A DNA stretch of 64,000 nucleotides from Candidatus Magasanikiibacteriota bacterium (GTDB taxonomy: Bacteria; Patescibacteriota; Patescibacteriia; Magasanikbacterales; GWA2-37-8). How positions within the stretch are numbered: the first letter of the stretch is position 1; every line of letters begins with the position of its first letter. The stretch is from assembly GCA_016182085.1 (NCBI GenBank), contig JACOYB010000007.1, positions 6,381-70,380 on the forward strand, in the 5' to 3' direction. The position numbers were made by a program, and so were the translations under genes. A model generated the notes under the pieces. The model searched no databases. It saw only the letters and a list, made by a program, of their open reading frames with translations, and was not told the origin of the DNA. This document shows positions 8,817-62,780 of this stretch, one piece after another.

Positions 8817-8856
8817 ATTAAAAACATTTAATTTATTTCTCTCACTCATTTCAATT

Positions 8857-9234
8857 ATGAAATCAAAAGCGTTTTGGGTTGTAATTTTTTTGGTATTGTT
8901 TGGGACAAATGTTTTGTTTGCTAGCTTGTATTTGCAGGCAAAAAAAGAACTGGAAGGCACGAAGGTGATTTTGTCTTCGCAGCAGTACCGCTCCAAGTAT
9001 ATGGATTTTCTGAAAATGTTTATTAAATTGGTAATAAAATCCGATAAAGAAGTTGATTTTGAAACTAGATTGAAACTTGAAAATGCGGTTAGGGGGCTAA
9101 AAGAAGAATATAACGATCCGGAAATTTTGGCGCAGTGGCAAAAATTTGTAAATAGCGGCAATGAAGCCGAGGCGCAAGCCAATGTAAAAGAGCTGTTGGG
9201 CATGCTGGTGGATAAGGTGTACGCGTTAAAATAA
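8857..9234 (+). CDS. Small membrane-anchored hypothetical protein
   Basis: N-terminal TM helix FWVVIFLVLFGTNVLFASLYL followed by a charged coiled region. Confidence 0.5.
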   Translation: MKSKAFWVVIFLVLFGTNVLFASLYLQAKKELEGTKVILSSQQYRSKYMDFLKMFIKLVIKSDKEVDFETRLKLENAVRGLKEEYNDPEILAQWQKFVNSGNEAEAQANVKELLGMLVDKVYALK

Positions 9235-9286
9235 AAATAGGGGACAAGTTTTGAAAAAGCAGGCAATTTAGGGTATAGTATCAGGA

Positions 9287-12200
9287 GTGTTTATGCTAAA
9301 GTCGCAGAAACAAAAATTGTTTTCCGTCAAAGTTAACGCAGCTTCTGGCGAGAAAAAAGAAAGTAAATTTTTAAGAGGATTTTTAAAATTATCCCCGGTT
9401 TTTGTTGGCCTGATAATGGTTTTTTATTATTTTTACCCCGCTTTTGCTAGTCCGCCTTCTAGTCCTTACGCACCCGGAGAAACTACCGATCCTTCTTGTT
9501 CCCCCGGAGATACCAACTGTACTGTTTATCCGCCATTTACCACCACTCTTACCGGCACGACCGCTATTACCATGGGTACTTCTTCCATTAGGTTTGCTTA
9601 CGACTCCACTAACTATTCTTCTCTCACCGTGGCTGCAGACGGGGCACTGACCGTTAGCTCTACTAATTCCGCCACCACTACTTTTATAAATAAAATATAT
9701 TTTTTAAGCAACGCATATTTTAATACGATTGCGTCCGGCACCTGGAACGGAAGCGTGATTGGCATTGCTTATGGCGGCACCAATTCGTCCACCATCGCCG
9801 CCAATGGTTCTATAGTTTACTCCGATGGCACCAGATACAACGCTACCGAAGTTGGAACCCTTGGTTACTTACTTATGTCCGCTGGAGGAGGCAGACCGGT
9901 ATGGATAAATAGCACTACCTTAGGCACCGGTATAGTGGGAAGTGGCACCGCTGGACAATTTCCTTATTATGCCACTAATGGCACAGCCGTAGTAGGAACT
10001 TCAACTTTATTTATTACCCCAACCAGTTTAGTTGGCATCGGCACCACCACCCCTACTCAAAAATTAGCAGTCGTAGGAAATATTTCTAATATTCTGGATC
10101 CTAGCAATACATCGTCTATTTCTCAGGTTTCTACCGTTACGGTGGGAACTGTGCCGCGAGGACTTTTTGTTTCCGGTCGGTACTTATATGTGGCTAATTA
10201 TAATGATAATACAATATCTGTCGTTGATGTTTCTAACTCTTCTGCCCCTGTCCAAATAGCTACGACTTCCGTAGACACTAACCCTATCTCTACCTTTGTT
10301 TCCGGTCGGTACTTATATGTGGCTAATTATAATTCAAATACTGTTTCCGTTGTTGATATTTCTAACCCCTCTGCCCCTAGAAAACTTTCTAGTGTGGCGG
10401 TAGAGGCGCAACCAACCACAATTTACGTCTCCGGCCATTATGCCTATGTAGTAAACCATACTTCAAACACTATTTCCGTTGTTGATGTCTCCAATCCATA
10501 TACTCCCGTCCAAATAGCTACGACTTCCGTAGGCAATAGTCCCCGCTCAGTTTATGTATCCGGCCGTTATGCGTATGTGGCAAATTATCTTGGAAATACC
10601 ATGTCGGTGGTTGATGTCTCCAATCCCGCGACTCCTGTCGAGATAGCTACGGTGGCTGTGGGAGCTAACCCGCGAGGCGTATATGTATCCGGCCGCTATG
10701 CTTATGTGGCAAATTTTTCTGGAGCGACCGTATCTGTTGTTGATGTCTCCAATCCTGCTGTTCCCGTTCAGATTGCTACCGCTCCTGTGGGTACTAGCCC
10801 TATGGCCATTTATGTCTCCGGCCGCTATGCCTATGTGGCTAACTTTAGTTCAGCCAATATTTCTATCGTTGATGTTTCTAGTTCTTCAGCTCCCAGCCAC
10901 ATTGCCACGGTGCCTGTAGGCACAAATCCTTATTCTATTTTTGTTTCCGGCCGCAATGTTTATGTGGCTAATTATGGTTCAAATACAATTTCTATCGTAG
11001 ACATACCCGGCGCTGAAGTAAGCAGCCTTATCGCTCACTCTGCCGAAGTAGGCAACATTCAATCTAGAAATGATATTTTAGCTCAAGGAAATATTATGGC
11101 CGGTACTGGTTTGATGGTTGGAGCGGGAGGGATAATGTCACAAGGAGGGTTATCTATCTTTGCCTCTACAACCGGTTCCACTTCGTCTATATTTAGTATT
11201 GATTCGGCCGCCTCTTCCAGCATAATTAAAGTTTTGGCCAATGGCAGAGTTGGTATCGGCACTTCAAGTCCGCAAGCGCTTCTCAGTTTGGTAAATGACT
11301 CTAATACTCAACTTCACCTCAACAGGTCCGGCGCATCCGGGCAAACGGGTACTCTTAGAATCGGCAATCAAGCAGGTTTAATTTCAAATTCTCGTGGAGG
11401 AATTAACAACGGAGTTCTGCGTAATGATGGCGTTTTACATCTGACTCGCAATCTTGTCTATAACAGCGGAGACTGGGAATTAGAAGCAGCCGACACAGGC
11501 GGTTTATTGGAAGTTGGAGCCGAGGGTATTTCTTTATGGACTGCCGCTTCAGCTGCGGCGGGTACAAAAAACCTTGGCATTATTTTAATGGCTCGTGATG
11601 ATGGTGATCTGGTAATTCCGGCAAAAGTCGGTATCGGGGTTCCTTATAATGATTCCACAGTTACTACCCCTCTGTATGTACAAGGAAACACCTCAGAAAT
11701 TATGAGGTCAGTTCGTACTTCCACGCTTACCAATGTTGCGCCTACGGGTTTGCGTGTTGCGCACAACTCCACCAACTCCAGTCTTGCCGATGGTTTTGGA
11801 ATGGTGATGCAGTTTGCCATAGATAGCCCTTCAATCTCGGAAACGGCCATAGCCGAAATCGGCGGTGTTAGATCGGGAGGAGATACTTCGGGCGCCCTTG
11901 TGTTTAGTACTTACAACGCGGGAGTTAGCACAGAAAAATTAAGAATTACACCTTCGGGTTTAATTGGAATTAACTCCACCTCACCCATAGCCAGTTTTGC
12001 ATTACAAGGCACGAGTACGAGTAATCTTTTTGCCTTTTCATCTTCCACCGGCGCAAATTTATTGAGATTGACCACTGACGGTGGTTTAGGTTTTGGTACT
12101 ACCCCGGCTACTACCGGCGCTATTCGCCTTGAAAATAATACGGGTATTTATGCCAGAAGAGCTGATAATGCCGCCGATATTGGCTTGCTTAGTTTGAACA

Positions 12201-14212
12201 CATCAAACCAGATCGTAATTGGCGTCAACGCCAGCGCCGTATTATTAAGTACCGATTTAGGTTTTAGCACTGATAATACCTACGACATCGGCGGAGGCAC
12301 AAGAAGTCCGCGGCATATTTTTGCGCGTAGTAATATAGCTGCCGGTACCAGCACCGCGATTGCCAGATTGACAGTGCAAGGAGATGGAACAGCCAATCCT
12401 TTTTCGGTTGTCACTTCAACCGCCGCCGCTTCTTCCATGTTTACAATTTTGACAAATGGCAGAGTTGGTATTAACACATCTTCTCCCGTTGCTATGTTAG
12501 CATTACAGGGCAGTGATGGTATTAATCCTTTGGAAATAGCTTCATCTACCGGCGCCAGCATGTTTAGAATTTTAACAAATGGAAATATTGGCATTGGAAA
12601 CAGCGCTCCTCTAGGTGATTTAGAAATAGGCAGCACAGCAGAATCGCAGGGTTTATTGGGTATTACAGCTAGCACTGCCGGAACAAGCGATATTTTCTTT
12701 AATAACAGCTCACAAAATAGAGGTGTAATTCGCTATACGCACTCCAGTGACAGTATGGCTCTTTGGAGCGCGGGAAGCGAAAGAATGAGAATTTCAAGTA
12801 CCGGTTTGGTGGGCGTTGGCACTACTACGCCATTATCCAAATTAACCGTAGTCGGTTCCGGTAATAACAGTACTACGATTGCTTTTAATACTTATAGCGC
12901 CTCCGGCACTTCCACTTTCAAAATTGATGATGCCGGCAATGCCTTTTTTGCCAACGATGGTATTTATTACGAAGCGTCCAGTTCAGTTGCTTATATAAAT
13001 AGTTTAGAAACAGGTCCGTTAAATTTTGATGATAATGCCGGCATGGTAACTTGGGTTGATATGTTAGTTTCTTCCTCAGTGGCCGGAACGCCAAACAGTT
13101 ATACGGCCGCCATAAATGATAACCCAATGTTAATGATATATGCGGAAAGCAATGGTTCGGGCGGTATTGCCAATCAAACAATTTCCATAAACACCAGCAC
13201 GACTTCTACTTATAAATTGTATATAGACGCGGGCGCCAGCACCACCGCCGGTTTGGGCGTAAATGGTTTTATAAAAGCCTCCGGGTATATTGCCGGCACC
13301 ACTACTTTAGATATTGCCGAAACTTACCCATTGGATCCGGAATGCGAGGCCAATGGAAATTGCCCTACATATGGCGAAGTCGTTTGTTCCGGAGAAGACG
13401 CATCTTCTACTGTATTTATCAAAAAATGTTCCGCCGCTTATGCCGATAATATTATCGGTGTGATTTCAGAAAACCCCGGTTTTATTTTGGGAGGTTATGA
13501 TGTCAGTAATGTAAGAATAAAAGGTTTATACCCGACTTCATTTAGGCCGGTAGCTTTGGGCGGACGCGTGCCGGTTAAAGTTTCTAACGCTAATGGCGCT
13601 ATTAAAGAAGGGGATTATCTTACTTCTTCCGCCGAGCCGGGGTTAGCCGTAAAAGCCATAGAGCCGGGCAGAGTAATAGGTATTGCTTTGCAATCTGTGG
13701 AAGAAAACGCTGAAACCGGCACTGTGATAATGTTTGTAAATCCGCATTGGTCGGCCGGCAGCTTAACCGAAGAGAGTATAGGCGCTGATTTGCCGGATTT
13801 TGCCGATGTTGTATTAGATAAATTTACTTTGGCCATAAAAAATAGTTTAAGAAAATTAGGGCTAGCAATTAAAAACGGAATTGCCACGGTAAAAGAATTG
13901 TTTGCTGACAAAGTTACTACCCAGCAGCTTTGTGTCGGTAGCACTTGTGTAAACGAACAGCAGCTGCAAGATATTTTAAATAGAACAAATGTACAGCCGG
14001 CGCCTTCCAATCCGTCGCCAGTGATACCGGAAAATGAAGCCGTTAACGCCCAAACCGCCCCCACTTCTTCCGTATCTGCGCCAGAATCCGCTGTTTCTTC
14101 TACCACAAATATAGTTGAAACTGTTGTTAACGAAACCGTTTTGGATACTGCTTCTTCCACACCCGCTGTTTCCGATACTGCTGCAGGCTCCACCACCGCC
14201 GAATCGCAATAA
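9287..14212 (+). CDS. Giant (1641 aa) anchored surface protein: 7x YVTN/LVIVD-type beta-propeller repeats, then tail-fibre-like G-[RN]-[VI]-G-I-G-T-x-S-P repeats, with a Cys-containing C-terminal domain
   Basis: N-terminal TM anchor. Seven repeats of about 43 aa (e.g. VYVSGRYAYVANYLGNTMSVVDVSNPATPVEIATVAVGANPRG). Recurring …NGRVGIGTSSPQALLSL… units. SD aggag. Confidence 0.8.
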   Translation: MFMLKSQKQKLFSVKVNAASGEKKESKFLRGFLKLSPVFVGLIMVFYYFYPAFASPPSSPYAPGETTDPSCSPGDTNCTVYPPFTTTLTGTTAITMGTSSIRFAYDSTNYSSLTVAADGALTVSSTNSATTTFINKIYFLSNAYFNTIASGTWNGSVIGIAYGGTNSSTIAANGSIVYSDGTRYNATEVGTLGYLLMSAGGGRPVWINSTTLGTGIVGSGTAGQFPYYATNGTAVVGTSTLFITPTSLVGIGTTTPTQKLAVVGNISNILDPSNTSSISQVSTVTVGTVPRGLFVSGRYLYVANYNDNTISVVDVSNSSAPVQIATTSVDTNPISTFVSGRYLYVANYNSNTVSVVDISNPSAPRKLSSVAVEAQPTTIYVSGHYAYVVNHTSNTISVVDVSNPYTPVQIATTSVGNSPRSVYVSGRYAYVANYLGNTMSVVDVSNPATPVEIATVAVGANPRGVYVSGRYAYVANFSGATVSVVDVSNPAVPVQIATAPVGTSPMAIYVSGRYAYVANFSSANISIVDVSSSSAPSHIATVPVGTNPYSIFVSGRNVYVANYGSNTISIVDIPGAEVSSLIAHSAEVGNIQSRNDILAQGNIMAGTGLMVGAGGIMSQGGLSIFASTTGSTSSIFSIDSAASSSIIKVLANGRVGIGTSSPQALLSLVNDSNTQLHLNRSGASGQTGTLRIGNQAGLISNSRGGINNGVLRNDGVLHLTRNLVYNSGDWELEAADTGGLLEVGAEGISLWTAASAAAGTKNLGIILMARDDGDLVIPAKVGIGVPYNDSTVTTPLYVQGNTSEIMRSVRTSTLTNVAPTGLRVAHNSTNSSLADGFGMVMQFAIDSPSISETAIAEIGGVRSGGDTSGALVFSTYNAGVSTEKLRITPSGLIGINSTSPIASFALQGTSTSNLFAFSSSTGANLLRLTTDGGLGFGTTPATTGAIRLENNTGIYARRADNAADIGLLSLNTSNQIVIGVNASAVLLSTDLGFSTDNTYDIGGGTRSPRHIFARSNIAAGTSTAIARLTVQGDGTANPFSVVTSTAAASSMFTILTNGRVGINTSSPVAMLALQGSDGINPLEIASSTGASMFRILTNGNIGIGNSAPLGDLEIGSTAESQGLLGITASTAGTSDIFFNNSSQNRGVIRYTHSSDSMALWSAGSERMRISSTGLVGVGTTTPLSKLTVVGSGNNSTTIAFNTYSASGTSTFKIDDAGNAFFANDGIYYEASSSVAYINSLETGPLNFDDNAGMVTWVDMLVSSSVAGTPNSYTAAINDNPMLMIYAESNGSGGIANQTISINTSTTSTYKLYIDAGASTTAGLGVNGFIKASGYIAGTTTLDIAETYPLDPECEANGNCPTYGEVVCSGEDASSTVFIKKCSAAYADNIIGVISENPGFILGGYDVSNVRIKGLYPTSFRPVALGGRVPVKVSNANGAIKEGDYLTSSAEPGLAVKAIEPGRVIGIALQSVEENAETGTVIMFVNPHWSAGSLTEESIGADLPDFADVVLDKFTLAIKNSLRKLGLAIKNGIATVKELFADKVTTQQLCVGSTCVNEQQLQDILNRTNVQPAPSNPSPVIPENEAVNAQTAPTSSVSAPESAVSSTTNIVETVVNETVLDTASSTPAVSDTAAGSTTAESQ
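10150..11010 (+). repeat. Tandem ~129-bp coding repeats (7 copies) encoding the propeller blades inside the 1641-aa gene
   Basis: Nucleotide-level near-identical units (…gtttccggtcggtacttatatgtggctaattataat…) recur every ~129 bp. Confidence 0.7.
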
Positions 14213-14222
14213 ATAGAATCTT

Positions 14223-16370
14223 ATGAGTAAGAAAAAATTTTTACAATCAAACTTGGTGTCTATTTCCGTTTTGTCGGCTCTGTTGGTTGTATTTATTATA
14301 AATAATAATCAGGTCGAAGCGGCTGTTATTAATAAAACAAGCGACCTAAATTCTTTAAGAAACGGATTGGTCGGGTGGTGGACTTTTGATGGGGCAAATG
14401 TGACCGCAACGACAGTTACCGATAAAAGCGGCGGCGGGTTGAACGGCACAAGAAACGGCACTCTTAGGGCTGCGGGAAAAATCGGCCAAGCCTTAAAATT
14501 TAACGGCACCAGCAGCGATTATATTACTCTTCCGGCTACGGGCGATTTTAATGTTAGAGGGAATATGGGGCGTCTCTCCAGTGAAAATTGGAGTTTAAGC
14601 GCTTGGTATAAAGGCACCGACCTTAGGCAGAATGTTGATTATGGCGTATCTTTAATTGGTTGGAACAGTGGCAATCTTTTTGCTTCTTTTTCAGTGCGAA
14701 GCGGCTATGCGGAATTTGCGCATTACAATGGCGGTTGGCAGCACAATATAAAATCAGCCACTTTGGTTGCAGACGGCAAATGGCACTTGATTACGTACTC
14801 CAACTACTCGGACAACACAGGCAGTCTTTATATTGACGGTATTTTAGAAATTGATAGAGCCAGCTCCACTATCGGCAGCGGAAGTTTTTTTCAGCCGTAT
14901 CATATTGGCGCTAACTTTAATAATATATATACAATTGGAACTATTGATGATGCCCGTATTTATAACCGTTCCTTGTCATCGGTAGAAGTAACACAGCTTT
15001 ACAAAACGGGCGGAGGAAAAATAAATAAAACAGATGCAATTAGAGCGCAGTTAAGAGAGGGGTTGAAAGCGCACTGGACATTTGATGGGGCAGATATGAC
15101 CCCCAATACTAGTACCGACAAAAGTGGCCAGGGAAATCATGGTACAAGAACCGGTGTAACCACCATGGTAAGAGGTAAAGTCGGGCAAGCCATGGAATTT
15201 AACGGGGCTACTGGCAGCGATATTGTTGTTACAACCAGCGCTTCTTTAAACCCCGCTACAGCTATGACAGTTTCTGCGTGGGTGAAAACCACCGATTCTA
15301 CAGGTATTATAATAAATAAAGACGACGGTGGTTCAAATAGGCAGTATTCCTTATTGACAAATTCAGGGGTACAATTTTTTGCTTTTCAATCTGGAGCCAC
15401 TTACACAAATACTGCTGCGATAGGAATTTCCGATGGCAAATGGCATTTTGTTGTTGGTACGGTAGATGTTAATGGAGACGGTAAAGCGCGAATGTATATA
15501 GATGGAGTTTTAAGAGATACGGGTGCAGTCGCAATTACAAGTATAGCTTCCAGCAGTGTGCCTGCTACCATTGGCGACAGACCGACAAACGCCTTTCCTT
15601 TGAGCGGTACAATTGATGATGCTCGAATTTATAATCGCGCCTTATCCCATGCCGAAGCGGCTGAACTATATAAAATGGCAAATAATAAAACCAGTAAAAC
15701 AGACACAGTGAGAGTGCAGCCTAAAAACAGTTTGGTTGGGCATTGGACTTTTGATGGCGGGAATATGACATCCGTTACGAGTACCGACACAAGCGGCCAG
15801 GGAAATCATGGAACAAGCACGATAATAAGCGCGACTAGAGGAAAAATAGGACAAGGTCTAGATTTTAAAGATACCAATTATTTTATAAACCTGGGCGATC
15901 CGTCATCTTTAAGGTTAACAACTCAGTTTACGGTTTCTTCTTGGGTTAAGGTTCGCGCTCATAAAAATTATAATCAAGTTTTTATGAAAAACGACGCTAA
16001 TTCGGATTTTTATGGCCTTTTGTTGGATGCAAACGGAAAATTAACCGGACAAGTTGGCAATGGCGGTTCTAATGTTACGCTAGTGGGCAATACGGTCTTA
16101 TCAGCAGGCAAGTGGTATCATGTAGCCGCAACCTATAACTCTGCTTTAGCATCCGGCAATCTAAAATTATATATAAATGGCGTTGAAGATACGTATGTGG
16201 GCAACGGTAATTTTTCTAGCGGCGTAGGGGACACAGCCGGCGGTTATACCAATATAGCTAAAGATCCGGTGAATGGAAGAAATTTTGATGGGTTACTTGA
16301 TGATGTCCGCGTTTATAGCCGTCCTCTGGCTCCGGCCGAAATCATGGCTTTGTATAAAACGGGTAAATAA
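14223..16370 (+). CDS. Secreted protein with three LamG-like (concanavalin A-like lectin/glucanase) jelly-roll domains
   Basis: Signal peptide. Three ~230-aa modules each with W(T)FDG…D(K/T)SG(Q)GNHGT…DDARIYNR(A/S)LS…LYKTG, as in the LamG_3-type domain family. Confidence 0.75.
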   Translation: MSKKKFLQSNLVSISVLSALLVVFIINNNQVEAAVINKTSDLNSLRNGLVGWWTFDGANVTATTVTDKSGGGLNGTRNGTLRAAGKIGQALKFNGTSSDYITLPATGDFNVRGNMGRLSSENWSLSAWYKGTDLRQNVDYGVSLIGWNSGNLFASFSVRSGYAEFAHYNGGWQHNIKSATLVADGKWHLITYSNYSDNTGSLYIDGILEIDRASSTIGSGSFFQPYHIGANFNNIYTIGTIDDARIYNRSLSSVEVTQLYKTGGGKINKTDAIRAQLREGLKAHWTFDGADMTPNTSTDKSGQGNHGTRTGVTTMVRGKVGQAMEFNGATGSDIVVTTSASLNPATAMTVSAWVKTTDSTGIIINKDDGGSNRQYSLLTNSGVQFFAFQSGATYTNTAAIGISDGKWHFVVGTVDVNGDGKARMYIDGVLRDTGAVAITSIASSSVPATIGDRPTNAFPLSGTIDDARIYNRALSHAEAAELYKMANNKTSKTDTVRVQPKNSLVGHWTFDGGNMTSVTSTDTSGQGNHGTSTIISATRGKIGQGLDFKDTNYFINLGDPSSLRLTTQFTVSSWVKVRAHKNYNQVFMKNDANSDFYGLLLDANGKLTGQVGNGGSNVTLVGNTVLSAGKWYHVAATYNSALASGNLKLYINGVEDTYVGNGNFSSGVGDTAGGYTNIAKDPVNGRNFDGLLDDVRVYSRPLAPAEIMALYKTGK

Positions 16371-23365: not shown

Positions 23366-24775
23366 ATGGGTTTAGAAGGTTTGCCATTTGGATTTACAAT
23401 TGATTTTTCTTTTTGGGGAATGATCCTGAATCTGCCTTCCTCGGAATTAACGCGGGTAGTTTTTGCTATGTTTGGTTGGGCATTTTTGGCTTTGGTGTTT
23501 TTTTTCGTTGGCGCGCATTTGTGGCTTGATCTACGCCAAGATTTAAATGTCCATCACTGGCAATGGGTCGTGCTGGCTGTAGATGTGCCGCCGGATACGG
23601 TACAAAGCCCAAAAGCGGTAGAACAGATATTTGCTCATTTAAGCGGTGCTTTGGATGAGCCAAATTTCGGACAAAAATATTGGGGCGGGGCAAAGCAACG
23701 CTGGTTTAGTTTGGAAATAATCAGTTTAGAAGGATATATTCAATTCTTGGTTTATACCGAAATCGCGCATCGTGATTTGGTGGAAGCAGCTGTTTACGCG
23801 CAGTATCCAATGGCAGAAATTACCGAAGTAGAAGATTACGTAAGTTTGATTCCTAGCAAGTTTCCAAACGAAACGCACAACATGTTTGGCATAGAATTTG
23901 GTCTGGTCGCGGCTGATCCGTATCCAATTCGCACCTACGAGGAATTTGAGCATAACATTATGCCCGATGAGCTTAAATTTAATGATCCGATGGCTTCTAT
24001 TTTGGAAAATTTTACCCGTATCGGCGCGGGCGAGAATTTATGGTTTCAAATTATCATTGAACCAACTTCAAGCAGCTGGAAAGAAAAAGGCATAAAACTC
24101 GTAAAAGAAATTATTGAAAATAAAGCGCCCCACCACGATCAGATCTTTGTGGTTAAAGCGATAAATGTTTTTGCCAGCGAACTGCTTAACGCGATCAAGG
24201 GTCCTTCCGAGGATCATAGTGGCAGTCATGAAGAACGCGAAACACCCGGCAAAGTTTCTGACCTGACTCCAAGAGGCCGAGATACGATCGCGGCCATAGA
24301 AGATAAAATATCCAAGGTTGGATTTAAATCAAAAATGCGTGTTATTTACGCGGCTAAAAAAGAGGTGTTTAATCCCGGCCGTTGTCTGGACGGATTTGTT
24401 GGTTCTATAAATCAGTTTAATTTTACCGGCCGAAATGCCTTGGTGCCGGTTGCGGCAACTAACGCTCACTATTTTTTTAAAAATGCTAAAATTATCGAAC
24501 TTAAAAATAAGTTCATTAAAGCCTATAAAAAACGCAAATTGAAAATGGGAAAAAACCCTTATGTTTTAAATACGGAAGAGCTGGCTACCTTATGGCACTT
24601 CCCGCTGCCGCTGGTTAAGACTCCGTTATTACAAAAGACCGGTGGCAAGAGAGCCGAGCCGCCTATCAACTTGCCTATTGAGGAACTTGCTGAAAGTCCG
24701 CTCAAGAGAAAGACGCCGCCGCCTCCGCCAGAGCCGCCGAAAGAAGAATCGCCGGCCGAATTGCCATACGCGTAA
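23366..24775 (+). CDS. Paralog of the N-terminal (non-ATPase) region of the TraD/VirD4-like protein at 33991-36549; membrane-anchored, Pro/Lys-rich tail
   Basis: Clear similarity to the 852-aa protein (AQYPMAEITEVEDY vs AQYPHAEITEETDY; YVLNTEELATLWHFPLP vs YMVFNTEEMASFWHLPIP) but no Walker A/B region. Confidence 0.6.
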   Translation: MGLEGLPFGFTIDFSFWGMILNLPSSELTRVVFAMFGWAFLALVFFFVGAHLWLDLRQDLNVHHWQWVVLAVDVPPDTVQSPKAVEQIFAHLSGALDEPNFGQKYWGGAKQRWFSLEIISLEGYIQFLVYTEIAHRDLVEAAVYAQYPMAEITEVEDYVSLIPSKFPNETHNMFGIEFGLVAADPYPIRTYEEFEHNIMPDELKFNDPMASILENFTRIGAGENLWFQIIIEPTSSSWKEKGIKLVKEIIENKAPHHDQIFVVKAINVFASELLNAIKGPSEDHSGSHEERETPGKVSDLTPRGRDTIAAIEDKISKVGFKSKMRVIYAAKKEVFNPGRCLDGFVGSINQFNFTGRNALVPVAATNAHYFFKNAKIIELKNKFIKAYKKRKLKMGKNPYVLNTEELATLWHFPLPLVKTPLLQKTGGKRAEPPINLPIEELAESPLKRKTPPPPPEPPKEESPAELPYA

Positions 24776-24854: not shown

Positions 24855-25373
24855 CTATAAAACCACGGGATTACTTTGTTTCGTTCGCAACGACAGTATG
24901 ATTTCCATACTTCCAACCAAAACTCCGGTATAAAACAAATCTCCAAGCAGGGTATTTTTAAAGAATGGCAAGGCTGCAATGTAGCTCTGCATCAGACCGT
25001 TTAGGTTATGTGGATACATGGTTCCAAAGGCCCATACCGCCCAGTTAGTGATGATAAAGAATAGGATGCTTGCCAGCAGTGTGCCGCCAAGGACGGTGTT
25101 AAGCTTTTTGTGTTTTTGAATTACTAAACCGATAATACCGGTAAGCGCAAAAGTAGCATATACAGATAGCATAACCGGCCAGAGATAAAAACCTAAAACA
25201 ATATCAGTTACAAACATGGTGGCCATAGGTATAAAAATGGCAAATTTTCTTGGTAAGTATATCCCCGAAAACAAAGCAATGGCCGCGATTGGCGCAAAGT
25301 TTGCCGGGTGAGGGAGTAGTCGGGTTGAGATGCCGAGAAGAATAAGAAGAAAGGCGGGAAGGTAGCGCTGCAT
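24855..25373 (-). CDS. Small polytopic membrane protein (5 TM), possible ECF-transporter S-component-like substrate carrier; last gene of the riboswitch operon
   Basis: 172 aa, five hydrophobic helices. Starts 17 nt after the upstream gene on the same strand. Confidence 0.55.
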   Translation of the reverse strand: MQRYLPAFLLILLGISTRLLPHPANFAPIAAIALFSGIYLPRKFAIFIPMATMFVTDIVLGFYLWPVMLSVYATFALTGIIGLVIQKHKKLNTVLGGTLLASILFFIITNWAVWAFGTMYPHNLNGLMQSYIAALPFFKNTLLGDLFYTGVLVGSMEIILSLRTKQSNPVVL

Positions 25374-25390
25374 ATGCGTTTATTAATTTA

Positions 25391-27631
25391 TTATTTTTTC
25401 TTCATTACATGGTTAAATCCAAGGTATAGGCCAGTAGCCCCGGCGGCAAGAAGACAAATTATTAGAAGTTTCTTTATCATCCACCTTACAGCAGATGAAT
25501 CAGAACCGGTATTTTTTTGATTTAGTTCTAAATTTTTGTCTGTATTCAAGTCTTCATTTGTAGATATAACTGTGCTCGTCTCAGCACTTATATTTTTATC
25601 TTCAGCTTGCGCCAAGCTCTTTGGTTTGGCGGAAATAGCGCGAGCGGTTTTTACCGGTTTAGCCGTGTTTTCAATTTTTATACCCAAGATTTCACCTTGA
25701 GGTTCTGAATCTGTATTAACTAGCTCAGAGGTAGTTGTGGCAGGGGTAGAGGTTGCTATGGTTGTAGTACTTATTATACTGGTAGTTTCAGCTGAAGTCG
25801 AGGTATTTGCTACAACAGGATTTGAACCCGAGCCTGTTGAAGCCGGAGCCGCGGGAACAACCGGAATGCTGGTAATAATCGGCCATGATTTTCCTAGTAG
25901 TGCCGGGACAGAGTGTTTGGTGGCAAACCAATCAATTCCGTCAGTACTCCAAGGAGATTGATAATAGCCCGAATCATTCACATTGTTTACGAGAACTGAC
26001 CATGGATTTTTATTTTGAGCATTTGTCCACCCTGTTTGACCTTCGCCAAGCGCGTTTAAGCCGTACATGGCCCAACTCGTAGTAAGCGGATCGGACGCAG
26101 TATCAAAGCCCCAGCCGCCATCGTTTAATTGAGTGGTATGCAGATAATTTTTTGCTTGCTGGAAAATTGTTTCATCTACGGCCGCGCCAAAGGTAGAAGC
26201 ATATTTAAGAGCGTTAATAGCGGCGCCGGTAACATCTTGTCCCGGCCATCCGTTCCAGGTAAATGCGCCATTTGCTTGCTGGTCGGCCTTAATCGTTGCC
26301 ACAGCTGCCTGTACAAGTTCATTTGAAGCGTCTTCGCCCGTAGCCAGAAGCGATAAGGTAATAAAAATATCGTCATTAATTCCGTTTTGACCGACAACGC
26401 CCTGGCTAAAGCATTCGTCTTTAATTTTATTTTTTAGTTCTGTAATCTGGCTGCTTGTTTTAGTAACACCGCTGGATAATAGGCCCAAGATATGTCTGGC
26501 GTATTCGGTGCATTTGTTTAAGGTATCAGTGGTAGAAGTTACAACCGCAGAGTTTAGATAATCGTATAGAGAAAAACTGGAAGTTCGGATATCATGAGCG
26601 TATATGCCATTTGCGCCAAATGACATAGCCGACCAATCCGAAGTAGACAAATCAACAATCGCGCCGTTATCTAGTTGCTTTGATTTCAAAAAGTTTAATA
26701 TTTTTTGCACCGCGTTGTTTATTTCGCTTGTGCTTACCGCCGCAGCCGGCCCGGAACCGCTCCCATTTTGCGGAGGTGTTACTGAATCTGTACTAGAAGA
26801 ATTTTCAAGTACAGTAAGGGTTATGGGATTGCTCCATTTGGTCCAATCTAAAGAAATAATTTTGGCATAATATGTACCGGTTGCGGAAAATTTAAAATCT
26901 ACGGTGCCGCTGGCGCTGGTTTGGGTTGTGGTAACCGTAATCGTTTGATCCCACCAGCCGGTTGAAGAAGGGTTGGGAATAGAAATATCTACCAAATTGT
27001 TTTCGTCAGATACCCATGATTCTGATAGATTATCAAATTGATAGCGCCAGGTTTGCAGAGTTGTGGTTGTGTCTAGCGGAAATGTGGTAGTGGAGGCGGA
27101 AATTTTCCAAGGAGTAGAGAAGTAGACGTATATACTTTCACCGCCAGTTAACCAGTATTTGTCCATGCCAGTACTTGGGTAGTTATTGTTTACCACATAA
27201 TTCCAGTTGTAGCAGGCATTTTGGGTAGAAGTTGGTGAGATATTTATACAAGCGAGATAGAAACTATCATAGCCCGCATTATACTGAGCATCTGAAATAG
27301 TAAAAGCATCGCTTTGTTGATCCGCTAAAACGAGAGCAGAAAATACTGTGTTAGTAGTAAGTTGATAATCCAAATTATTTATTGCGTCATGATGTAGGGT
27401 GCTTGTGAGTTCTATGCTGCCTGTCCAGATAATTTGATCTTCGTAACGAAGGGTTAGAGTAGAAGTAGGTAAAGACATGGCTGGAGTGCTCGTGGGCAGT
27501 TCCATTTCCGGAGTAGAAGTATTTATATCAGGAGTAGAGCTGGTTGTGTCGGCGAGCGCCGGTAAAGCCCAGAATAACGTTCCTAAAATTACTAAATATT
27601 TTAATCCTCCTAAACTGTTTTTTATTTGCAT
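25391..27631 (-). CDS. Secreted, C-terminally anchored protein with an alpha/alpha-toroid (prenyltransferase / squalene-cyclase-like repeat) domain
   Basis: Signal peptide. Repeats LDNGAIVDLSTSDWSAMS, QQANGAFTWNGWPGQDVTGAAINAL, LNDGGWGFDTASDPLTTSWAMYGL (QxxDGGW-type). Ser/Thr linker. C-terminal TM helix followed by MKKK. Confidence 0.75.
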   Translation of the reverse strand: MQIKNSLGGLKYLVILGTLFWALPALADTTSSTPDINTSTPEMELPTSTPAMSLPTSTLTLRYEDQIIWTGSIELTSTLHHDAINNLDYQLTTNTVFSALVLADQQSDAFTISDAQYNAGYDSFYLACINISPTSTQNACYNWNYVVNNNYPSTGMDKYWLTGGESIYVYFSTPWKISASTTTFPLDTTTTLQTWRYQFDNLSESWVSDENNLVDISIPNPSSTGWWDQTITVTTTQTSASGTVDFKFSATGTYYAKIISLDWTKWSNPITLTVLENSSSTDSVTPPQNGSGSGPAAAVSTSEINNAVQKILNFLKSKQLDNGAIVDLSTSDWSAMSFGANGIYAHDIRTSSFSLYDYLNSAVVTSTTDTLNKCTEYARHILGLLSSGVTKTSSQITELKNKIKDECFSQGVVGQNGINDDIFITLSLLATGEDASNELVQAAVATIKADQQANGAFTWNGWPGQDVTGAAINALKYASTFGAAVDETIFQQAKNYLHTTQLNDGGWGFDTASDPLTTSWAMYGLNALGEGQTGWTNAQNKNPWSVLVNNVNDSGYYQSPWSTDGIDWFATKHSVPALLGKSWPIITSIPVVPAAPASTGSGSNPVVANTSTSAETTSIISTTTIATSTPATTTSELVNTDSEPQGEILGIKIENTAKPVKTARAISAKPKSLAQAEDKNISAETSTVISTNEDLNTDKNLELNQKNTGSDSSAVRWMIKKLLIICLLAAGATGLYLGFNHVMKKK

Positions 27632-27636
27632 AAAAA

Positions 27637-28224
27637 TTATTTATTTTCGTACCTCCATGTGATTAAATCGTTTGGTTTAAGGGTATAATTTGAGATACCA
27701 ACCTTTGCTTCCTCGTTATTTATATAAAATGTCCAGTAGAAACCGGTAGACGGACTATTTTTCTGGCTATTGATTTCTTCTACGAAATGCCCCAGGCCGG
27801 AAAATACTTTGGTAGAAAACGAGATTTCGTTGCTTTCTCGTAATGCAACCATTGCTTCATAAGCGGTAGCGCCTGGTTTTACAGTTGGATTGTACTCCCT
27901 ATCTTCAATTTTGAATGTAACGGGTATAGTTTCGGTTGAGTTGGTTGGAGGTGGTGGGGACAAAGGGGAGGTGTTGGAGGCGGTATTTGTTCCTGCGGAG
28001 CTAGTTACAGTTTTTTCGTTACTATCGCTAGTTTTATTTTTTAGCACCGCCGGTTTTAAATCTGGTTCAGTTTGAAGGGCGGCGGCAGTGTTTGTGGGGG
28101 CAGTATATAAAGGCGGGGAGGCGTTATTATTATCTGGATTAAGGAATAAGTAGGTTGCGGCAAAAACCGAAATAAAAATCAGAAAAATTAATAGTCGGTG
28201 AAGGAGTTTGTTTGAATTGGGCAT
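27637..28224 (-). CDS. DUF4430-like secreted protein (beta-domain fold related to intrinsic factor/transcobalamin C-terminal domain), N-terminally anchored
   Basis: N-terminal TM, Pro/Thr/Ser linker, then VTFKIEDREYNPTVKPGATAYEAMVALRESNEISFSTKVFSGLGHFVEEINSQ…FYWTFYINNEEAKVGISNYTLKPNDLITWRY, as in DUF4430. Confidence 0.65.
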   Translation of the reverse strand: MPNSNKLLHRLLIFLIFISVFAATYLFLNPDNNNASPPLYTAPTNTAAALQTEPDLKPAVLKNKTSDSNEKTVTSSAGTNTASNTSPLSPPPPTNSTETIPVTFKIEDREYNPTVKPGATAYEAMVALRESNEISFSTKVFSGLGHFVEEINSQKNSPSTGFYWTFYINNEEAKVGISNYTLKPNDLITWRYENK

Positions 28225-28244
28225 ATGCAGTTTTAATTATCCGC

Positions 28245-28455
28245 GCTAACAAAAAAATCTTTGCCGAGCGGGAAAGATTCAAAAATATATGGGTTTTTGT
28301 TTCCTGCTCGGGACTAACCCCATATTTATGGGGCCTATATCTGAAGATCGGACTTCTCGCCCAGGGCGAGTTTACCGTTGCGGCACAGTGGAGGAATCAA
28401 ACCTCACTTCCACAGATATATTTTAGTTAAATTGTAAAGTTAGACTAGCACCTAA
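28245..28455 (-). promoter_or_regulatory. Probable cobalamin (AdoCbl) riboswitch with intrinsic-terminator expression platform, upstream of the DUF4430 gene
   Basis: Minus-strand RNA reads AGGUGCU…GGAAGUGAGGUUUGAUUCCUCCACUGUGCCGCAACGGUAAAC… This matches my recollection of the conserved GGUG…AAUCC / CCCGCAACUGUAA core. It is followed by hairpins and a CCGAGC…GCUCGG stem plus a U7 run. Confidence 0.5.
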
Positions 28456-28774
28456 ATTTTTGAGTGTCAAATAAAGGTGTGGATTATTGTTAATTAATAA
28501 ATTTATAGATTCGAGTTGACGGTGTTGAAGAGTGCCCGTCGAACTCTAACGACATTATTTGCCCCGTTTTTCTACAAGCTGCCGGTAGCTTGCAAATCCC
28601 TCCACAGTCTTTCGTTTTTTGCATGTTGGGCAAAAGACGATAACGCCGATGCGGCTTGTCGCCAGGTGTTGGAGTATTCCCGGACAGGAACCCTTGCCTT
28701 CCTTTGGGCTGATAATTCCACCGCAGTAGAGATCTTTTACTCTGAGCGTCATTGTACACCCCCTCTGTTATTTT

Positions 28775-31228: not shown

Positions 31229-31299
31229 TTCCGAGGCTTGGATTCGAACCAAGATAAGCAGATTCAGAGTCTGCTGTCCTACCATTAGACCACCTCGGA
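31229..31299 (-). tRNA. tRNA-Gln (anticodon CUG)
   Basis: Minus-strand cloverleaf: acceptor TCCGAGG/CCTCGGA, D arm GTCT-AATGGTA-GGAC, anticodon stem GCAGA/TCTGC with loop CTCTGAA (CTG anticodon), T arm CTTGG-TTCGAAT-CCAAG. CCA is not encoded. Confidence 0.8.
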
Positions 31300-33990: not shown

Positions 33991-36549
33991 TTAAAGACCA
34001 GCTTCACTCAATTCGGTTTTGCCTTCTTTTATTACTACGCCCAGTTGGGCCCTTTCGGCGATTTCCGCTTCCACGATTTCTCTTGGCCGTCCGTATTTAA
34101 GCCTGGACAGCTCTTTAATCGCAGCGGCCAGTTGTTTGTTGCCTGGACGTGGGGGATAGGTGAACATATTAAACGGTTTAGCGGCGGTGTTGTCAATCAG
34201 CAGTTTGGTATAAGCTGTGTATTGTTCCACGTTTACCAGATCGTAGGCGCTAAATACTGGCGCGAATTCTTTGGCCAGAATCTCCGCGTCTTCCACGCCA
34301 ATGCGGAATGATACAAGTGTGCCCGCGTTACCCAAGACCGCGTCACGCACCGTGGTTTTGCCTTTGTTATCTTCCAGTTGTTTCATGTACTGGTGGGCAA
34401 TGATAAGTTCCAAACGGTATTTTCTGGCTTCGGATAAAATGGTGGCAATGGAGTCGGTAATAAAGTTTTGGAACTCGTCAATATATAAATAAAAATCATG
34501 GCGCTGATCTTCGGGAAGCGAAGCGCGTTCCAGGGCGGCCATTTGCAGTTTGGATACGATAATAAGACCTAAGAGGTTTGAGTTTATTTCACCAACCAAA
34601 CCCTTGGCCAAATTAACCAAGAGAATTTTTTTCTTGTCCATGACCTCGCGGAAATTAAAACCCGAATGCGTTTGGCCGATAATATTACGGATCATGGCGT
34701 TTTCTACAAAACGGCCCACTTTGGAAATAAGGTACCCCAACATTTCCGATTTATGAAAGTCCGAAGTTTTGGCCATTTCTTTATCCCAGAAGGCAAGTAC
34801 CATCGGGTCGGTAAGTTTCTTCTTCCACTCTTTTACAAATTCGTCATCGGTAAACATGCGGGGGATTTCGGCGATCGTGCCCGGATTTTCGGTATCTGCC
34901 ATAAGGGTAAGCATCACGTTGCGCATGTTGTGTTCAAACATCGGGCCAATCATGGACGGATCAGTAACCAGTTTATAGAAAATAGAAATCATTTCCTGGG
35001 TTGCGAAATCTTTTTGCTCTTCGCTCTGTACGTCTATCATGTTTAAGCCGATCGGGCGTTCCACGTCTGCCGGATTAAAATAAATCACGTCTTCGGCTCG
35101 TTCTTTGGGCACATGCTGTAATACATAATCTACAAAATCTCCGTGCGGGTCTATGACGCATACGCCCTCGCCGTTAATAATATCTTGCACTGCCAAATTT
35201 TGGATAAATACGGATTTACCGCTGCCGGATTTACCGATGGTGTACAAATGACGGCGGCGATCTTCGCGTTTCATACGCACAATAGTTTCTTCGCCTCTGT
35301 ATACCGCCCGGCCCAAAATAATACCTTCTTTTGGCATATTAGTGGGCGGAGGGGCTTTGCGCGCGCCGAGCCAGTTGATATTAGGCGTTTCGGTGCTGGG
35401 AATTGGCAGGTGCCAAAAACTGGCCATTTCTTCGGTATTGAAAACCATATAATGGTTTTCTTTAATACTTCTATAGATATAATCCTGAATAAGAGTAGTG
35501 GGACGGCGGGGGACAACAGCGCTGAGAGTATTGCCGTAGCGATACAAATTATATTGACTGAAAGCATTTATAATATTTTCCAAATTGAGCACGGCTTTTT
35601 CCTTGCTGTTTGCCGAGCTTATCAAACGAATCGTGGTTTCCACGCCGCCGCGGCTGATTTTTTCTTCCATGTTTTTAACCATTTCTTCTTCCATCTGGGT
35701 AAGCTGATATTTTGGTTCAAAACTTTGTTGAGTATCTTTTTTCTTTTTTGGGAAAATATATTTGCCCCAGCCGCTGAGGAATCGTCGCAATTCGCCGCGT
35801 TTGGCCACGTCTTCAAATTTTTCGCCTTTTTTGATATCGCGAATAATATGCACGCCTTCCTTGCGCCAATGGCTGGAAGCAGGACGGATAATGTACTGAA
35901 TAATCGCGCCTTCGTCTTCGGCGATTTTGCTGAGCGGGTTGAGCAGGGCAACCAGGGGGTCGCTGTCCAGTTTTTTATATGTTTTAAGCGGGAATGAAGA
36001 TTTGTGTTTGAGCCATAAATACGCGCCCACGATATGGCTTTGCGGCTTGAACGGATTATAGTCCGTTTCTTCGGTGATTTCCGCGTGCGGGTATTGGGCA
36101 TGAACTTGCTGCTCCACAAACCCTTTTATTTTATCGGGGACAATAATATAAAAAGAAATTTTACTATCCTTAACAACGATTTCAAACGCCACATGGTCGT
36201 TGCGTCCGCGCAGCCAGGTCATGATGCCTTTTTCTTTTTTTAATCCGGCAATGGCAGAAAATAAAGTTTCGGAAACGGCGATTTCCTCGCGCACATGATT
36301 GATATTATCTTCGGCGCCGGCGGATTCCGGTTTGTCGCCCTTTTTTTCTTTGGGAACTTTTATGAGCAGTACGGTTTTATGGAATGCCTTGCTTTGGCGT
36401 CCTTTGGCCGTAACCACGGCCTTTAAAATATAAAGAAGAGAAATAAAAAATATTACGCCGAGAGCCGGCGGCAGAATATACAAAAAAAGACTATTTTCCA
36501 GCAAGCTGTTTATAAGTTCTATGATTGTATTTACAATTTCGTAGAACAC
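33991..36549 (-). CDS. TraD/VirD4/TrwB-like type IV coupling-protein-family ATPase with N-terminal membrane anchor
   Basis: Two N-terminal TM helices. Walker A GKSGSGKS. Walker B-like hydrophobic stretch then DE (…IDEFQNF…). Size and layout of conjugative coupling proteins. Confidence 0.7.
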   Translation of the reverse strand: MFYEIVNTIIELINSLLENSLFLYILPPALGVIFFISLLYILKAVVTAKGRQSKAFHKTVLLIKVPKEKKGDKPESAGAEDNINHVREEIAVSETLFSAIAGLKKEKGIMTWLRGRNDHVAFEIVVKDSKISFYIIVPDKIKGFVEQQVHAQYPHAEITEETDYNPFKPQSHIVGAYLWLKHKSSFPLKTYKKLDSDPLVALLNPLSKIAEDEGAIIQYIIRPASSHWRKEGVHIIRDIKKGEKFEDVAKRGELRRFLSGWGKYIFPKKKKDTQQSFEPKYQLTQMEEEMVKNMEEKISRGGVETTIRLISSANSKEKAVLNLENIINAFSQYNLYRYGNTLSAVVPRRPTTLIQDYIYRSIKENHYMVFNTEEMASFWHLPIPSTETPNINWLGARKAPPPTNMPKEGIILGRAVYRGEETIVRMKREDRRRHLYTIGKSGSGKSVFIQNLAVQDIINGEGVCVIDPHGDFVDYVLQHVPKERAEDVIYFNPADVERPIGLNMIDVQSEEQKDFATQEMISIFYKLVTDPSMIGPMFEHNMRNVMLTLMADTENPGTIAEIPRMFTDDEFVKEWKKKLTDPMVLAFWDKEMAKTSDFHKSEMLGYLISKVGRFVENAMIRNIIGQTHSGFNFREVMDKKKILLVNLAKGLVGEINSNLLGLIIVSKLQMAALERASLPEDQRHDFYLYIDEFQNFITDSIATILSEARKYRLELIIAHQYMKQLEDNKGKTTVRDAVLGNAGTLVSFRIGVEDAEILAKEFAPVFSAYDLVNVEQYTAYTKLLIDNTAAKPFNMFTYPPRPGNKQLAAAIKELSRLKYGRPREIVEAEIAERAQLGVVIKEGKTELSEAGL

Positions 36550-57755: not shown

Positions 57756-57829
57756 GGGTCGGTAGTTCAACTGGTTAGAGCACTGCCCTGTCACGGCAGA
57801 AGTTGCGGGTTCGAGTCCCGTCCGACCCG
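57756..57829 (+). tRNA. tRNA-Asp (anticodon GUC)
   Basis: Acceptor GGGTCGG/CCGACCC, D arm GTTC-AACTGGTTA-GAGC, anticodon stem CTGCC/GGCAG with loop CTGTCAC, T arm GCGGG-TTCGAGT-CCCGT, discriminator G. Confidence 0.85.
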
Positions 57830-62382: not shown

Positions 62383-62780
62383 TGGTGGAGGTGGCGAGAG
62401 TTGAACTCGCGTGTAGATAACTTTGACTAAACCTTCTACATACTTAGTGTCTCTTGGTATTTAATCAACCCGATAAAAGAGGACGAAAATCGGATTGACG
62501 AGCCGAGTAACTTCGTTGTGCGTCAGTCGGCGCTAACACATAACTACTCTCAGTTAATGACACCGCGGATCGGTTACTGAGTATTGCCGGCGCGATGGGT
62601 AACAGGCTATTAAGCCATTACCGGAGCCAAAGCGCGGGAACCAAACAAGTTGGCTACAGCTACTTTAGCTTTTGATAACAAGTTTACACTTATTATGGCG
62701 CTCTTTGTGATTTACGAGGATCAGAGCTTCCTCGGTATGCCGGTGTAGCCAGGAATTTCTATCGAAAGCCCGGCACCCCC
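62383..62780 (-). ncRNA. ssrA: tmRNA (ssrA), one-piece, starting immediately after the smpB stop codon
   Basis: Minus strand reads 5' GGGGGUGCCGGGCUUUCGAUAG…3'. Tag ORF …GCUUUGGCUCCGGUAAUGGCUUAAUAGCCUG (…ALAPVMA**) resembles E. coli GCUUUAGCAGCUUAAUAACCUG. 3' end GCGAG-UUCAACU-CUCGC-CACCUCC-ACCA pairs with the 5' GGGGGUG. Confidence 0.8.

Follow-up and report, generated by a model that had tools for sequence, protein, structure and literature searches.

A Putative Cobalamin-Repressed Operon for Corrinoid Capture and Uptake, with a DUF6580 Membrane Protein, in Candidatus Magasanikbacteria

Introduction

The closest described relatives of the system considered here were recognized by Burroughs, Balaji, Iyer and Aravind, who defined the SLBB superfamily (Burroughs et al. 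2007; PMC1796856). Bacterial transcobalamin-like SLBB proteins are secreted or anchored. Fusions to immunoglobulin-fold domains are common among them, as are fusions to an alpha/alpha toroid, which can lie on either side. Their operons often hold a second, paralogous SLBB protein and CbiO/CbiQ genes. As these proteins are found in organisms that do not synthesize B12, the authors predicted a role in B12 scavenging (PMC1796856). Here, we analyze an operon of this kind in a 64,000-nucleotide stretch of DNA (contig JACOYB010000007.1, positions 6,381 to 70,380), hereafter the window, from Candidatus Magasanikbacteria, a member of the Candidate Phyla Radiation (CPR)/Patescibacteria. Its three genes, that we named A, B, and C, lie behind a cobalamin riboswitch and encode a DUF4430 protein, a toroid surface protein, and a DUF6580 membrane protein, respectively. 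Judging from their sequences, they probably constitute a cobalamin-repressed corrinoid (B12) capture and uptake system, a reading to which we give a probability of roughly 75%.

Three other systems are relevant to this comparison. The lsa1836–1840 operon of Lactobacillus sakei, described in 2019, encodes an energy-coupling factor (ECF) S-component, EcfA, EcfT, the beta-like protein Lsa1839, and the alpha-like protein Lsa1840, and was assigned to heme by its authors (bioRxiv 10.1101/864751). ECF-CbrT of Lactobacillus delbrueckii is a B12 transporter of the ECF type (PMC5997447; PDB 6FNP). BtuM of Thiobacillus denitrificans is a solitary, S-component-like B12 transporter with an invariant cobalt-ligating cysteine, Cys80 (PMC6072759; PDB 6FFV/8OVV). 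In a large share of B12-dependent prokaryotes, the B12 membrane transporter is unidentified (PMC6072759).

Like the systems of Burroughs et al. (2007), the window operon combines a tethered fusion of beta-grasp domain and toroid, an extra beta domain, and a second SLBB paralogue. It differs from them in its membrane component, DUF6580 being the only one and no ATPase accompanying it, where the earlier operons carry CbiO/CbiQ-type ECF genes. In place of Gram-positive wall anchors there are transmembrane (TM) segments with long low-complexity stalks, the operon belongs to a CPR bacterium, and it is under riboswitch control, which is absent from the discussion in that work (PMC1796856). With the L. 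sakei operon it shares extracytoplasmic toroid and beta-like proteins encoded together with a carrier of S-component fold. That operon, however, includes a complete ECF module and a CbrT-like S-component, whereas here we find DUF6580 and no module in cis; moreover, our "alpha" protein includes a beta domain as well, and the operon is controlled by cobalamin riboswitches. An original prediction, made from the letters of the window, had considered such a B12 scavenging system not to have been described as such, but the concept is already present in both earlier works (PMC1796856; bioRxiv 10.1101/864751). What appears undescribed is DUF6580 as a B12 carrier and the module-less architecture in CPR bacteria. 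The literature library searched returned no paper mentioning DUF6580 and none combining Patescibacteria, cobalamin, and riboswitch. The riboswitch-controlled BtuB–BtuG pair of Bacteroides, in which a high-affinity trap exposed at the surface passes B12 to a membrane transporter, follows the same logic as the operon described here. Its folds, a beta-propeller lipoprotein and a TonB-dependent barrel, are unrelated, and its envelope is diderm.

A Cobalamin Riboswitch Heads a Conserved Operon

The operon occupies the minus strand of the window from 28470 down to 24855. A riboswitch leader is followed by three co-oriented open reading frames (ORFs) of 195, 746, and 172 amino acids (aa), genes A, B, and C, separated by gaps of 5 nt (A/B) and 17 nt (B/C). 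These ORFs lie where the original prediction had placed them, with the gaps that it gave, and the leader sequence that it quoted is present in the window. Public data hold identical proteins from a Candidatus Magasanikbacteria metagenome-assembled genome, which makes the host a CPR/Patescibacteria organism.

We assembled 80 loci of DUF6580 relatives by scanning one genome per species (first set) and 80 more by a metagenome scan seeded with a cross-phylum alignment (second set), 160 in total. Loci were annotated with phmmer, an nhmmer profile iterated from the window leader, and Rfam scans. In 71 loci, the gene order is that of the window (DUF4430, toroid protein, DUF6580), and a cobalamin riboswitch lies upstream in 67 of these; three have too short an upstream sequence and one has none. 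Eight further loci, all with a cobalamin riboswitch upstream, have a divergent middle gene between DUF4430 and DUF6580, so that 75 of the 79 loci with a middle gene are preceded by a riboswitch. Twenty-four minimal loci have no toroid protein, and a homologue of gene A directly upstream of DUF6580, abutting it; a riboswitch was found in eight and not detected in about 11, and five are too short upstream. Altogether, 83 of the 103 loci with an upstream DUF4430 gene carry a cobalamin riboswitch. Three Rfam cobalamin classes (RF01482, RF01689, and RF00174) head DUF4430–DUF6580 operons in different lineages, and cobalamin-riboswitch control of the operon extends to about 90 loci. The conservation of the gene trio behind B12 riboswitches, whose absence would have spoken against the original prediction, was thus observed in about 80 loci. 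With about 80 independent loci sharing this order, and covariation in the aptamer helices, the association of riboswitch and gene order is far beyond chance. Many CPR lineages lack the toroid protein, and DUF4430 and DUF6580 alone make up their operon. What is conserved at the core is thus the pair of beta-domain protein and carrier, not one of alpha plus beta; the toroid protein is an addition typical of Magasanikbacteria.

The aptamer (28280–28438, minus strand) is of the adenosylcobalamin (AdoCbl) type. It matches the RF01482 covariance model of Rfam clan CL00101 with 54.3 bits, above the gathering score of 50 (E 3.4e-7 in the whole window and 2.2e-9 in the leader alone), in agreement with the AdoCbl riboswitch proposed originally. 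In an alignment of 39 loci the aptamer core is nearly invariant, and the part supported by covariation extends from P1 to P1, approximately from 28420 to 28336. Standard pairs occupy 94.3% of the cells of the four-helix structure, against 34–51% with slid partners. Compensatory changes occur at 10 pairs, and the observed values were reached by 0 of 500 shuffles; helices P1 and P5 covary. As RNAalifold gave only part of the aptamer, the P1 helix was added by hand.

Upstream of the aptamer, a candidate promoter region (28431–28470, minus strand) can be read from the sequence. It contains TTGACA (28470–28465), separated by 17 nt from TAGTCT (28447–28442), and a nearly invariant TACAAT (28431–28436), with about 10 nt between it and the downstream P1 helix. 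Conservation of ACAAT reaches at least 90% in each column of the 39-locus alignment, and TACAAT is likely a −10 promoter element for CPR bacteria. A simple sigma-70 scan did not call the region.

Immediately 3' of the aptamer lies the motif CCCGAGCAGGA, whose core CGAGCAG (C136–G142) is invariant in 39/39 aligned loci and whose flanks are at least 90% conserved. In the form [CT]CGAGCAG[GA], it was found in 49 loci of the first set and in 75 over both sets. In the window, this invariant motif, CCCGAGCAGGAA, forms the 5' arm of an antiterminator (28301–28312, minus strand), as seen in the alignment and in the minimum-free-energy fold, where it pairs with 28275–28264. The 3' arm, UUUCCCGCUCGG (28264–28275, minus strand), overlaps the 5' arm and loop of an intrinsic terminator hairpin, AAUCUUUCC/GGCAAAGAUU with its U7 run (28251–28279, minus strand; −6.2 kcal/mol here). 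The hairpin abutting the U7 run reads AAUCUUU(CC)...(GG)CAAAGAUU (28279–28256, minus strand). The antiterminator duplex has a median free energy of −13.6 kcal/mol across loci versus −6.4 for shuffled controls. A short hairpin abutting a T-run (5–8 T, median 7) follows the motif by 31–75 nt in 49/49 loci (median −7.1 kcal/mol). The antiterminator, in which the invariant CCGAGCAGG pairs with CUGCUCGG, and the terminator hairpin with U7 are mutually exclusive, and such a pair exists in 49/49 loci. As the motif can pair with both the 5' arm and the loop of a U-run hairpin, the expression platform is of the terminator type, as originally proposed. However, the CCGAGC...GCUCGG stem that had been taken for the terminator is the antiterminator; the U7 run is abutted by another hairpin, which competes with this stem. 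The leader terminator escaped a simple terminator scan. As the genes are for uptake, we infer from their biology that cobalamin switches the operon OFF.

The core of the CCCGAGCAGGA arm is invariant across CPR lineages, while aptamer stems and terminators vary. As a mere antiterminator arm would be free to covary with its partner, this arm probably has a second role, for example, in a tertiary contact or a pseudoknot with the liganded aptamer.

Genes A and B Encode Tethered Transcobalamin-Like Proteins

Gene A (27637–28224, minus strand) encodes a protein with an N-terminal TM anchor (aa 5–31), a T/P/N/S-rich stalk of about 85 aa, and a DUF4430/SLBB domain (aa 118–193), as delineated by Pfam, hydropathy, and composition. 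Its match to DUF4430 (PF14478; E 1.1e-15, 58.3 bits against a cut-off of 23.8) and its anchor agree with the original description as an N-terminally anchored DUF4430-like beta-domain protein. By this match, gene A is assigned to the transcobalamin C-terminal (DUF4430/SLBB) family. A sequence search of the PDB gave nothing useful. A BLASTP comparison of this domain with the N-terminal domain of gene B was not significant (E 0.28), so that the relationship between the two beta domains is one seen with Pfam.

Gene B (25391–27631, minus strand) was delineated from its ORF, Pfam, hydropathy, and an AlphaFold2 (AF2) model. The N-terminal half of the protein comprises a signal peptide (aa 9–27, ending in ALA and followed by DT), a DUF4430-like domain (approximately aa 56–171), and a second all-beta domain (approximately aa 175–275). 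The C-terminal half consists of an alpha/alpha toroid (approximately aa 300–580), an S/T-rich stalk of about 135 aa, and a TM anchor (aa 714–740). The AF2 model of aa 50–600 (predicted local distance difference test score 89.5) shows two beta domains, a disordered linker, and the alpha/alpha toroid. Gene B matches the Pfam family SQHop_cyclase_C with 27.3 bits, for a cut-off of 26.1. Among 58 homologues of gene B, 43 match DUF4430 (best E 1.6e-13) and 53 match SQHop_cyclase_C. Two match the eukaryotic family Cobalamin_bind (PF01122; P0180 with 31.1 bits against 25, over 44 residues), and both score better there than on the cyclase family. A search of the PDB with a gene B profile retrieved cyclases only, and neither transcobalamin nor intrinsic factor.

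Pfam, hydropathy, and the AF2 model thus confirm the signal-peptide-like N-terminus, the alpha/alpha toroid, and the C-terminal TM segment described originally. The proposed separation of alpha and beta halves on two polypeptides did not hold, as gene B itself carries a beta-like domain fused to the toroid. Based on the matches of its homologues to DUF4430, SQHop_cyclase_C, and Cobalamin_bind, gene B is a fused, circularly re-ordered "bacterial transcobalamin" and does not represent one half, the alpha one, of a split pair; beside it, gene A is a further, paralogous beta-domain protein that stands alone. In mammalian transcobalamin, intrinsic factor, and haptocorrin, the alpha domain is N-terminal to the beta domain, whereas the order in gene B is beta, second beta, toroid. 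Also unlike the mammalian carriers, the system includes a second, stand-alone beta protein, is membrane-tethered and not soluble, and its window protein does not match PF01122.

Gene C Belongs to the DUF6580 Family and Has an S-Component-Like Fold

Gene C (24855–25373, minus strand; ORF, Pfam, AF2 model) matches DUF6580 (PF20221) over residues 5–159 of 172, with an E value of 3.7e-49 and 167.5 bits for a cut-off of 27. Its AF2 model has six helices, not the five TM segments given in the original prediction, in an S-component-like fold. Its closest structural counterpart is BtuM, a solitary, B12-loaded transporter, with 15% identity over the structural alignment. In the comparison with CbrT/BtuM-type carriers called for originally, the S-component-like six-helix fold was found; the BtuM cysteine and sequence homology were not. 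As the BtuM family is defined by its invariant cobalt-ligating cysteine and gene C has none, we rejected gene C as a member of that family. BtuM also has no dedicated extracytoplasmic binding partner, unlike the gene C system. With CbrT, gene C shares the S-component fold of a cobalamin carrier, and sequence similarity is marginal: in a search of the PDB with a DUF6580 profile (38 homologues), the only match was the 182-aa "membrane protein" chain 6FNP_A of ECF-CbrT (E 0.07). A search of the PDB with the gene C sequence gave nothing useful. The window protein has no match to S-component Pfam families. Among its relatives, P0469 matches PF12822 (ECF_trnsprt) over its full length with an E value of 4.5e-6 and 27.2 bits, under the cut-off of 30.7, and P0239 matches PF07155 with an E value of 0.003.

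The DUF6580 family counts about 5,900 representatives at 50% identity (E up to 1e-3), or about 4,000 with E up to 1e-10. Its signature, N..VWAFGTMY, R..PH, and an Asp, is invariant across five phyla. CbrT needs EcfAA'T. At DUF6580 loci, EcfT and EcfA/A' genes are absent in cis: over about 5–6 kb around DUF6580, none of the 160 loci has a gene for an EcfT-like protein or an ECF-type ATPase. In 78 of the 80 genome loci, no ATP-binding cassette (ABC) ATPase is present within about 6 kb, and none is of ECF type. In the 64-kb window there is no ECF module, and the only ABC system is of the ABC-2 type.

Outside CPR bacteria, an RF00174 riboswitch lies upstream of DUF6580 in 8/8 Ignavibacteria-type loci. 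The two annotated ones (L063 and L068) have the order riboswitch, TonB-dependent receptor, DUF6580, with a DUF5074 protein preceding DUF6580 in L068. In these two loci, DUF6580 lies where an inner-membrane B12 transporter is expected. In two loci from alphaproteobacterial metagenome-assembled genomes (MAGs; L077 and L078, 2840–6480), a BtuF/FhuD-type Peripla_BP_2 gene abuts DUF6580, which also follows a classical ABC system made up of SBP_bac_11, a permease, and an ATPase; the scans detected no riboswitch in either locus. The possibility that they are EcfAA'T-S operons was ruled out, since their genes are those of the classical ABC system and of the BtuF-like binding protein.

A natural single-chain fusion was found in P0247 (L162, 173–1186), where DUF6580 is followed by a seventh TM helix and DUF4430 with coherent topology, in the reverse of the usual operon order. 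An apparent fusion of toroid and DUF6580 (P0220) was set aside, as its ORF seems to have been called too long. Gene C is the probable corrinoid carrier.

Proposed Mechanism and Alternatives

The architecture of the leader suggests that when cobalamin is scarce, the antiterminator would form and genes A, B, and C would be transcribed, and that cobalamin bound to the aptamer would lead to formation of the terminator instead. By analogy with transcobalamin and intrinsic factor, gene B on its stalk of about 135 residues would be a high-affinity outer trap, in which the corrinoid is clamped between the toroid and the beta-grasp domain. Gene A, a single beta-grasp domain held near the membrane by a stalk of about 85 residues, would be the docking and hand-over partner of the carrier. 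This role is proposed because of its strict adjacency to the carrier and of the single fusion; a protein of the gene A type is the part retained wherever DUF6580 occurs in CPR bacteria. Gene C would then move the corrinoid across the membrane by the toppling proposed for S-components. Considering its S-component fold and the lack of ECF module genes in cis at any locus, it would most likely act as a solitary carrier like BtuM, without ATPase. As it has no cysteine, its ligand chemistry would differ from that of BtuM. We tentatively propose, at somewhat less than even odds, that DUF6580 is a third, independent family of B12 carriers with S-component fold, next to CbrT and BtuM, working without an ECF module and without a cysteine ligand, which in CPR bacteria is fed directly by a tethered transcobalamin-beta-like domain.

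Several observations weigh against a B12 uptake operon of this design. Within gene B of the window, the DUF4430 match (aa 96–172) is sub-threshold (E 1.2e-3, 19.6 bits for a cut-off of 23.8), and there is no match to PF01122 at E values up to 0.1. BtuM was not retrieved from all PDB sequences by phmmer or by profile hmmsearch at E values up to 10. Gene C has no cysteine, and no cysteine is invariant in 38 CPR or in nine cross-phylum homologues. No aptamer partner sequestering the invariant CCGAGCAGG in the ligand-bound state was found, candidate positions being scattered across loci, which is why the OFF logic is deduced from gene function. About 11 of the 24 minimal DUF4430–DUF6580 loci have no detected riboswitch, among them L135, with a sub-threshold match to RF01689. 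The P0247 fusion is a singleton on a 1.9-kb Logan contig that did not recur among 354 relatives, and its support for the hand-over is consequently weak. Finally, an Acidobacteria-like clade of DUF6580 (L082–L105, L079, and L080; L082–L105 are high-GC soil metagenome contigs) has neither a riboswitch (0/11 scanned) nor a DUF4430 neighbor. Given this clade and the riboswitch-less minimal loci, the family as a whole may not be B12-specific, and members of the Acidobacteria-like clade may have other substrates. The B12 role should accordingly be claimed for the CPR and Ignavibacteria clades and not for the whole family.

One alternative retains the B12 function and changes the mode of transport: DUF6580 would be a conventional ECF S-component docking on a shared EcfA/A'/T module encoded elsewhere (group II), and uptake would be ATP-driven. 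The fold of gene C equals that of ECF S-components, the weak similarities to the ECF-CbrT chain and, in P0469, to PF12822 point in the same direction, and in Firmicutes, homologues of the SLBB/toroid proteins are found in operons with CbiO/CbiQ-type genes (PMC1796856; L. sakei). We nevertheless consider this alternative rather unlikely, as no EcfT-like or ECF ATPase gene was found within about 5–6 kb of DUF6580 in the 160 loci or in the 64-kb window, the best structural match is the solitary BtuM, and the Ignavibacteria context mirrors a btuB–btuM arrangement.

The ligand itself could be another tetrapyrrole or an incomplete corrinoid, such as heme or cobinamide, and not complete cobalamin. 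Haptocorrin-type binders accept many corrinoids, the L. sakei operon with homologous alpha- and beta-like proteins was assigned to heme uptake, and gene C has no counterpart of the cobalt-ligating cysteine of BtuM. Such a specificity is improbable: cobalamin riboswitches belonging to three classes control the operon in about 90 loci, in Ignavibacteria there is coupling to a TonB-dependent receptor that is itself under riboswitch control, and we saw no iron- or heme-responsive element.

A different possibility is that gene B is only co-transcribed and that B12 is handled by genes A and C alone; gene B would then act at the surface as an enzyme or adhesin, of a type related to terpene cyclases, prenyltransferases, or the alpha2-macroglobulin thioester domain. 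A class II terpene cyclase is unlikely on three grounds: scores are far under the cut-offs (24.8 bits against 322.7 for TIGR01787 and 17.5 against 431.1 for TIGR01507), the segment aligned, weakly, to the DVDDTA (DxDD) of squalene-hopene cyclase reads D-V-T-G-A-A, and the protein is extracytoplasmic, according to its signal peptide, with a single toroid. The thioester motif of the alpha2-macroglobulin type, CGEQ, is not matched by NKCTEY, the sole Cys-x-Glu stretch of the protein. Moreover, the protein is secreted and tethered, DUF4430 is fused to the toroid in most of its homologues, two of these match Cobalamin_bind better than the cyclase family, and in 71 loci the gene sits between genes A and C behind the riboswitch. 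An enzyme or adhesin has therefore little probability. That DUF6580 is a membrane receptor or sensor of S-component fold, or an exporter, is most improbable: the fold is also common to histidine kinase sensor domains (PMC11109136) and the Acidobacteria-like clade has no B12 context, but no fused or adjacent signaling domain was seen at any locus, DUF6580 lies downstream of a riboswitch-controlled TonB-dependent receptor in the two annotated Ignavibacteria loci, and its best structural match is a B12-loaded transporter.

Reading the operon as a corrinoid capture and uptake system gives the uncharacterized family DUF6580 a specific, testable role. It points to how CPR/Patescibacteria, which depend on others for cofactors, may acquire corrinoids, namely by surface-tethered relatives of animal B12 carriers, and it supports the older idea that the architecture of transcobalamin and intrinsic factor arose in bacteria. 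The advance is one of annotation, on a design that had already been predicted, and brings no new principle. If DUF6580 is indeed a third carrier family, it would make up, with DUF4430, a minimal two-protein B12 import system; the outer trap, a complete "bacterial transcobalamin" on a long stalk, would be an addition by Magasanikbacteria. DUF6580 would also supply the inner-membrane B12 transporter that is missing in Ignavibacteria and in many other B12 auxotrophs lacking BtuCD, BtuM, and CbrT.

Additional Features of the Window and of Related Loci

In some minimal operons, a second cobalamin-riboswitch-like element follows directly after the DUF6580 gene (L060, 6516–7580; L127, 720–794). In L060, the element lies ahead of a 316-aa ORF that matches no Pfam family and carries a CxxC...CxxC cluster at its C-terminus; this ORF may be another B12-regulated gene. 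In the Acidobacteria-like clade, Acido-Lenti-1 sRNA genes were found near DUF6580 in L091 and L104. Operons of the Magasanikbacteria type, with protein identities to the window of at most 85%, also occur in MAGs labeled uncultured Gammaproteobacteria or Candidatus Saccharibacteria (L001, L003, L004, L006–L008, and many others); the taxonomy of these third-party annotation (TPA) assemblies looks unreliable.

In the window, a 469-aa ORF (23366–24775, plus strand) is convergent with the 3' end of the operon; its product has TM segments near the N-terminus, is rich in proline at the C-terminus, and matches no Pfam family. A tmRNA gene (62383–62780, minus strand; 120.8 bits) and two tRNA genes (31229–31299, minus strand; 57756–57829, plus strand) were also identified. 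Further large ORFs lie at 6843–16370 (plus strand) and 33991–36549 (minus strand). They comprise a run of very large ORFs of secreted or surface type, with proteins of 657 aa with CarboxypepD_reg, of 715 aa with three Laminin_G_3 repeats, and of 1641 aa, and an ORF for an 852-aa TrwB/TraG-like type IV coupling protein. Such genes for the cell surface and for DNA uptake are usual in CPR bacteria and have no relation to the B12 operon.

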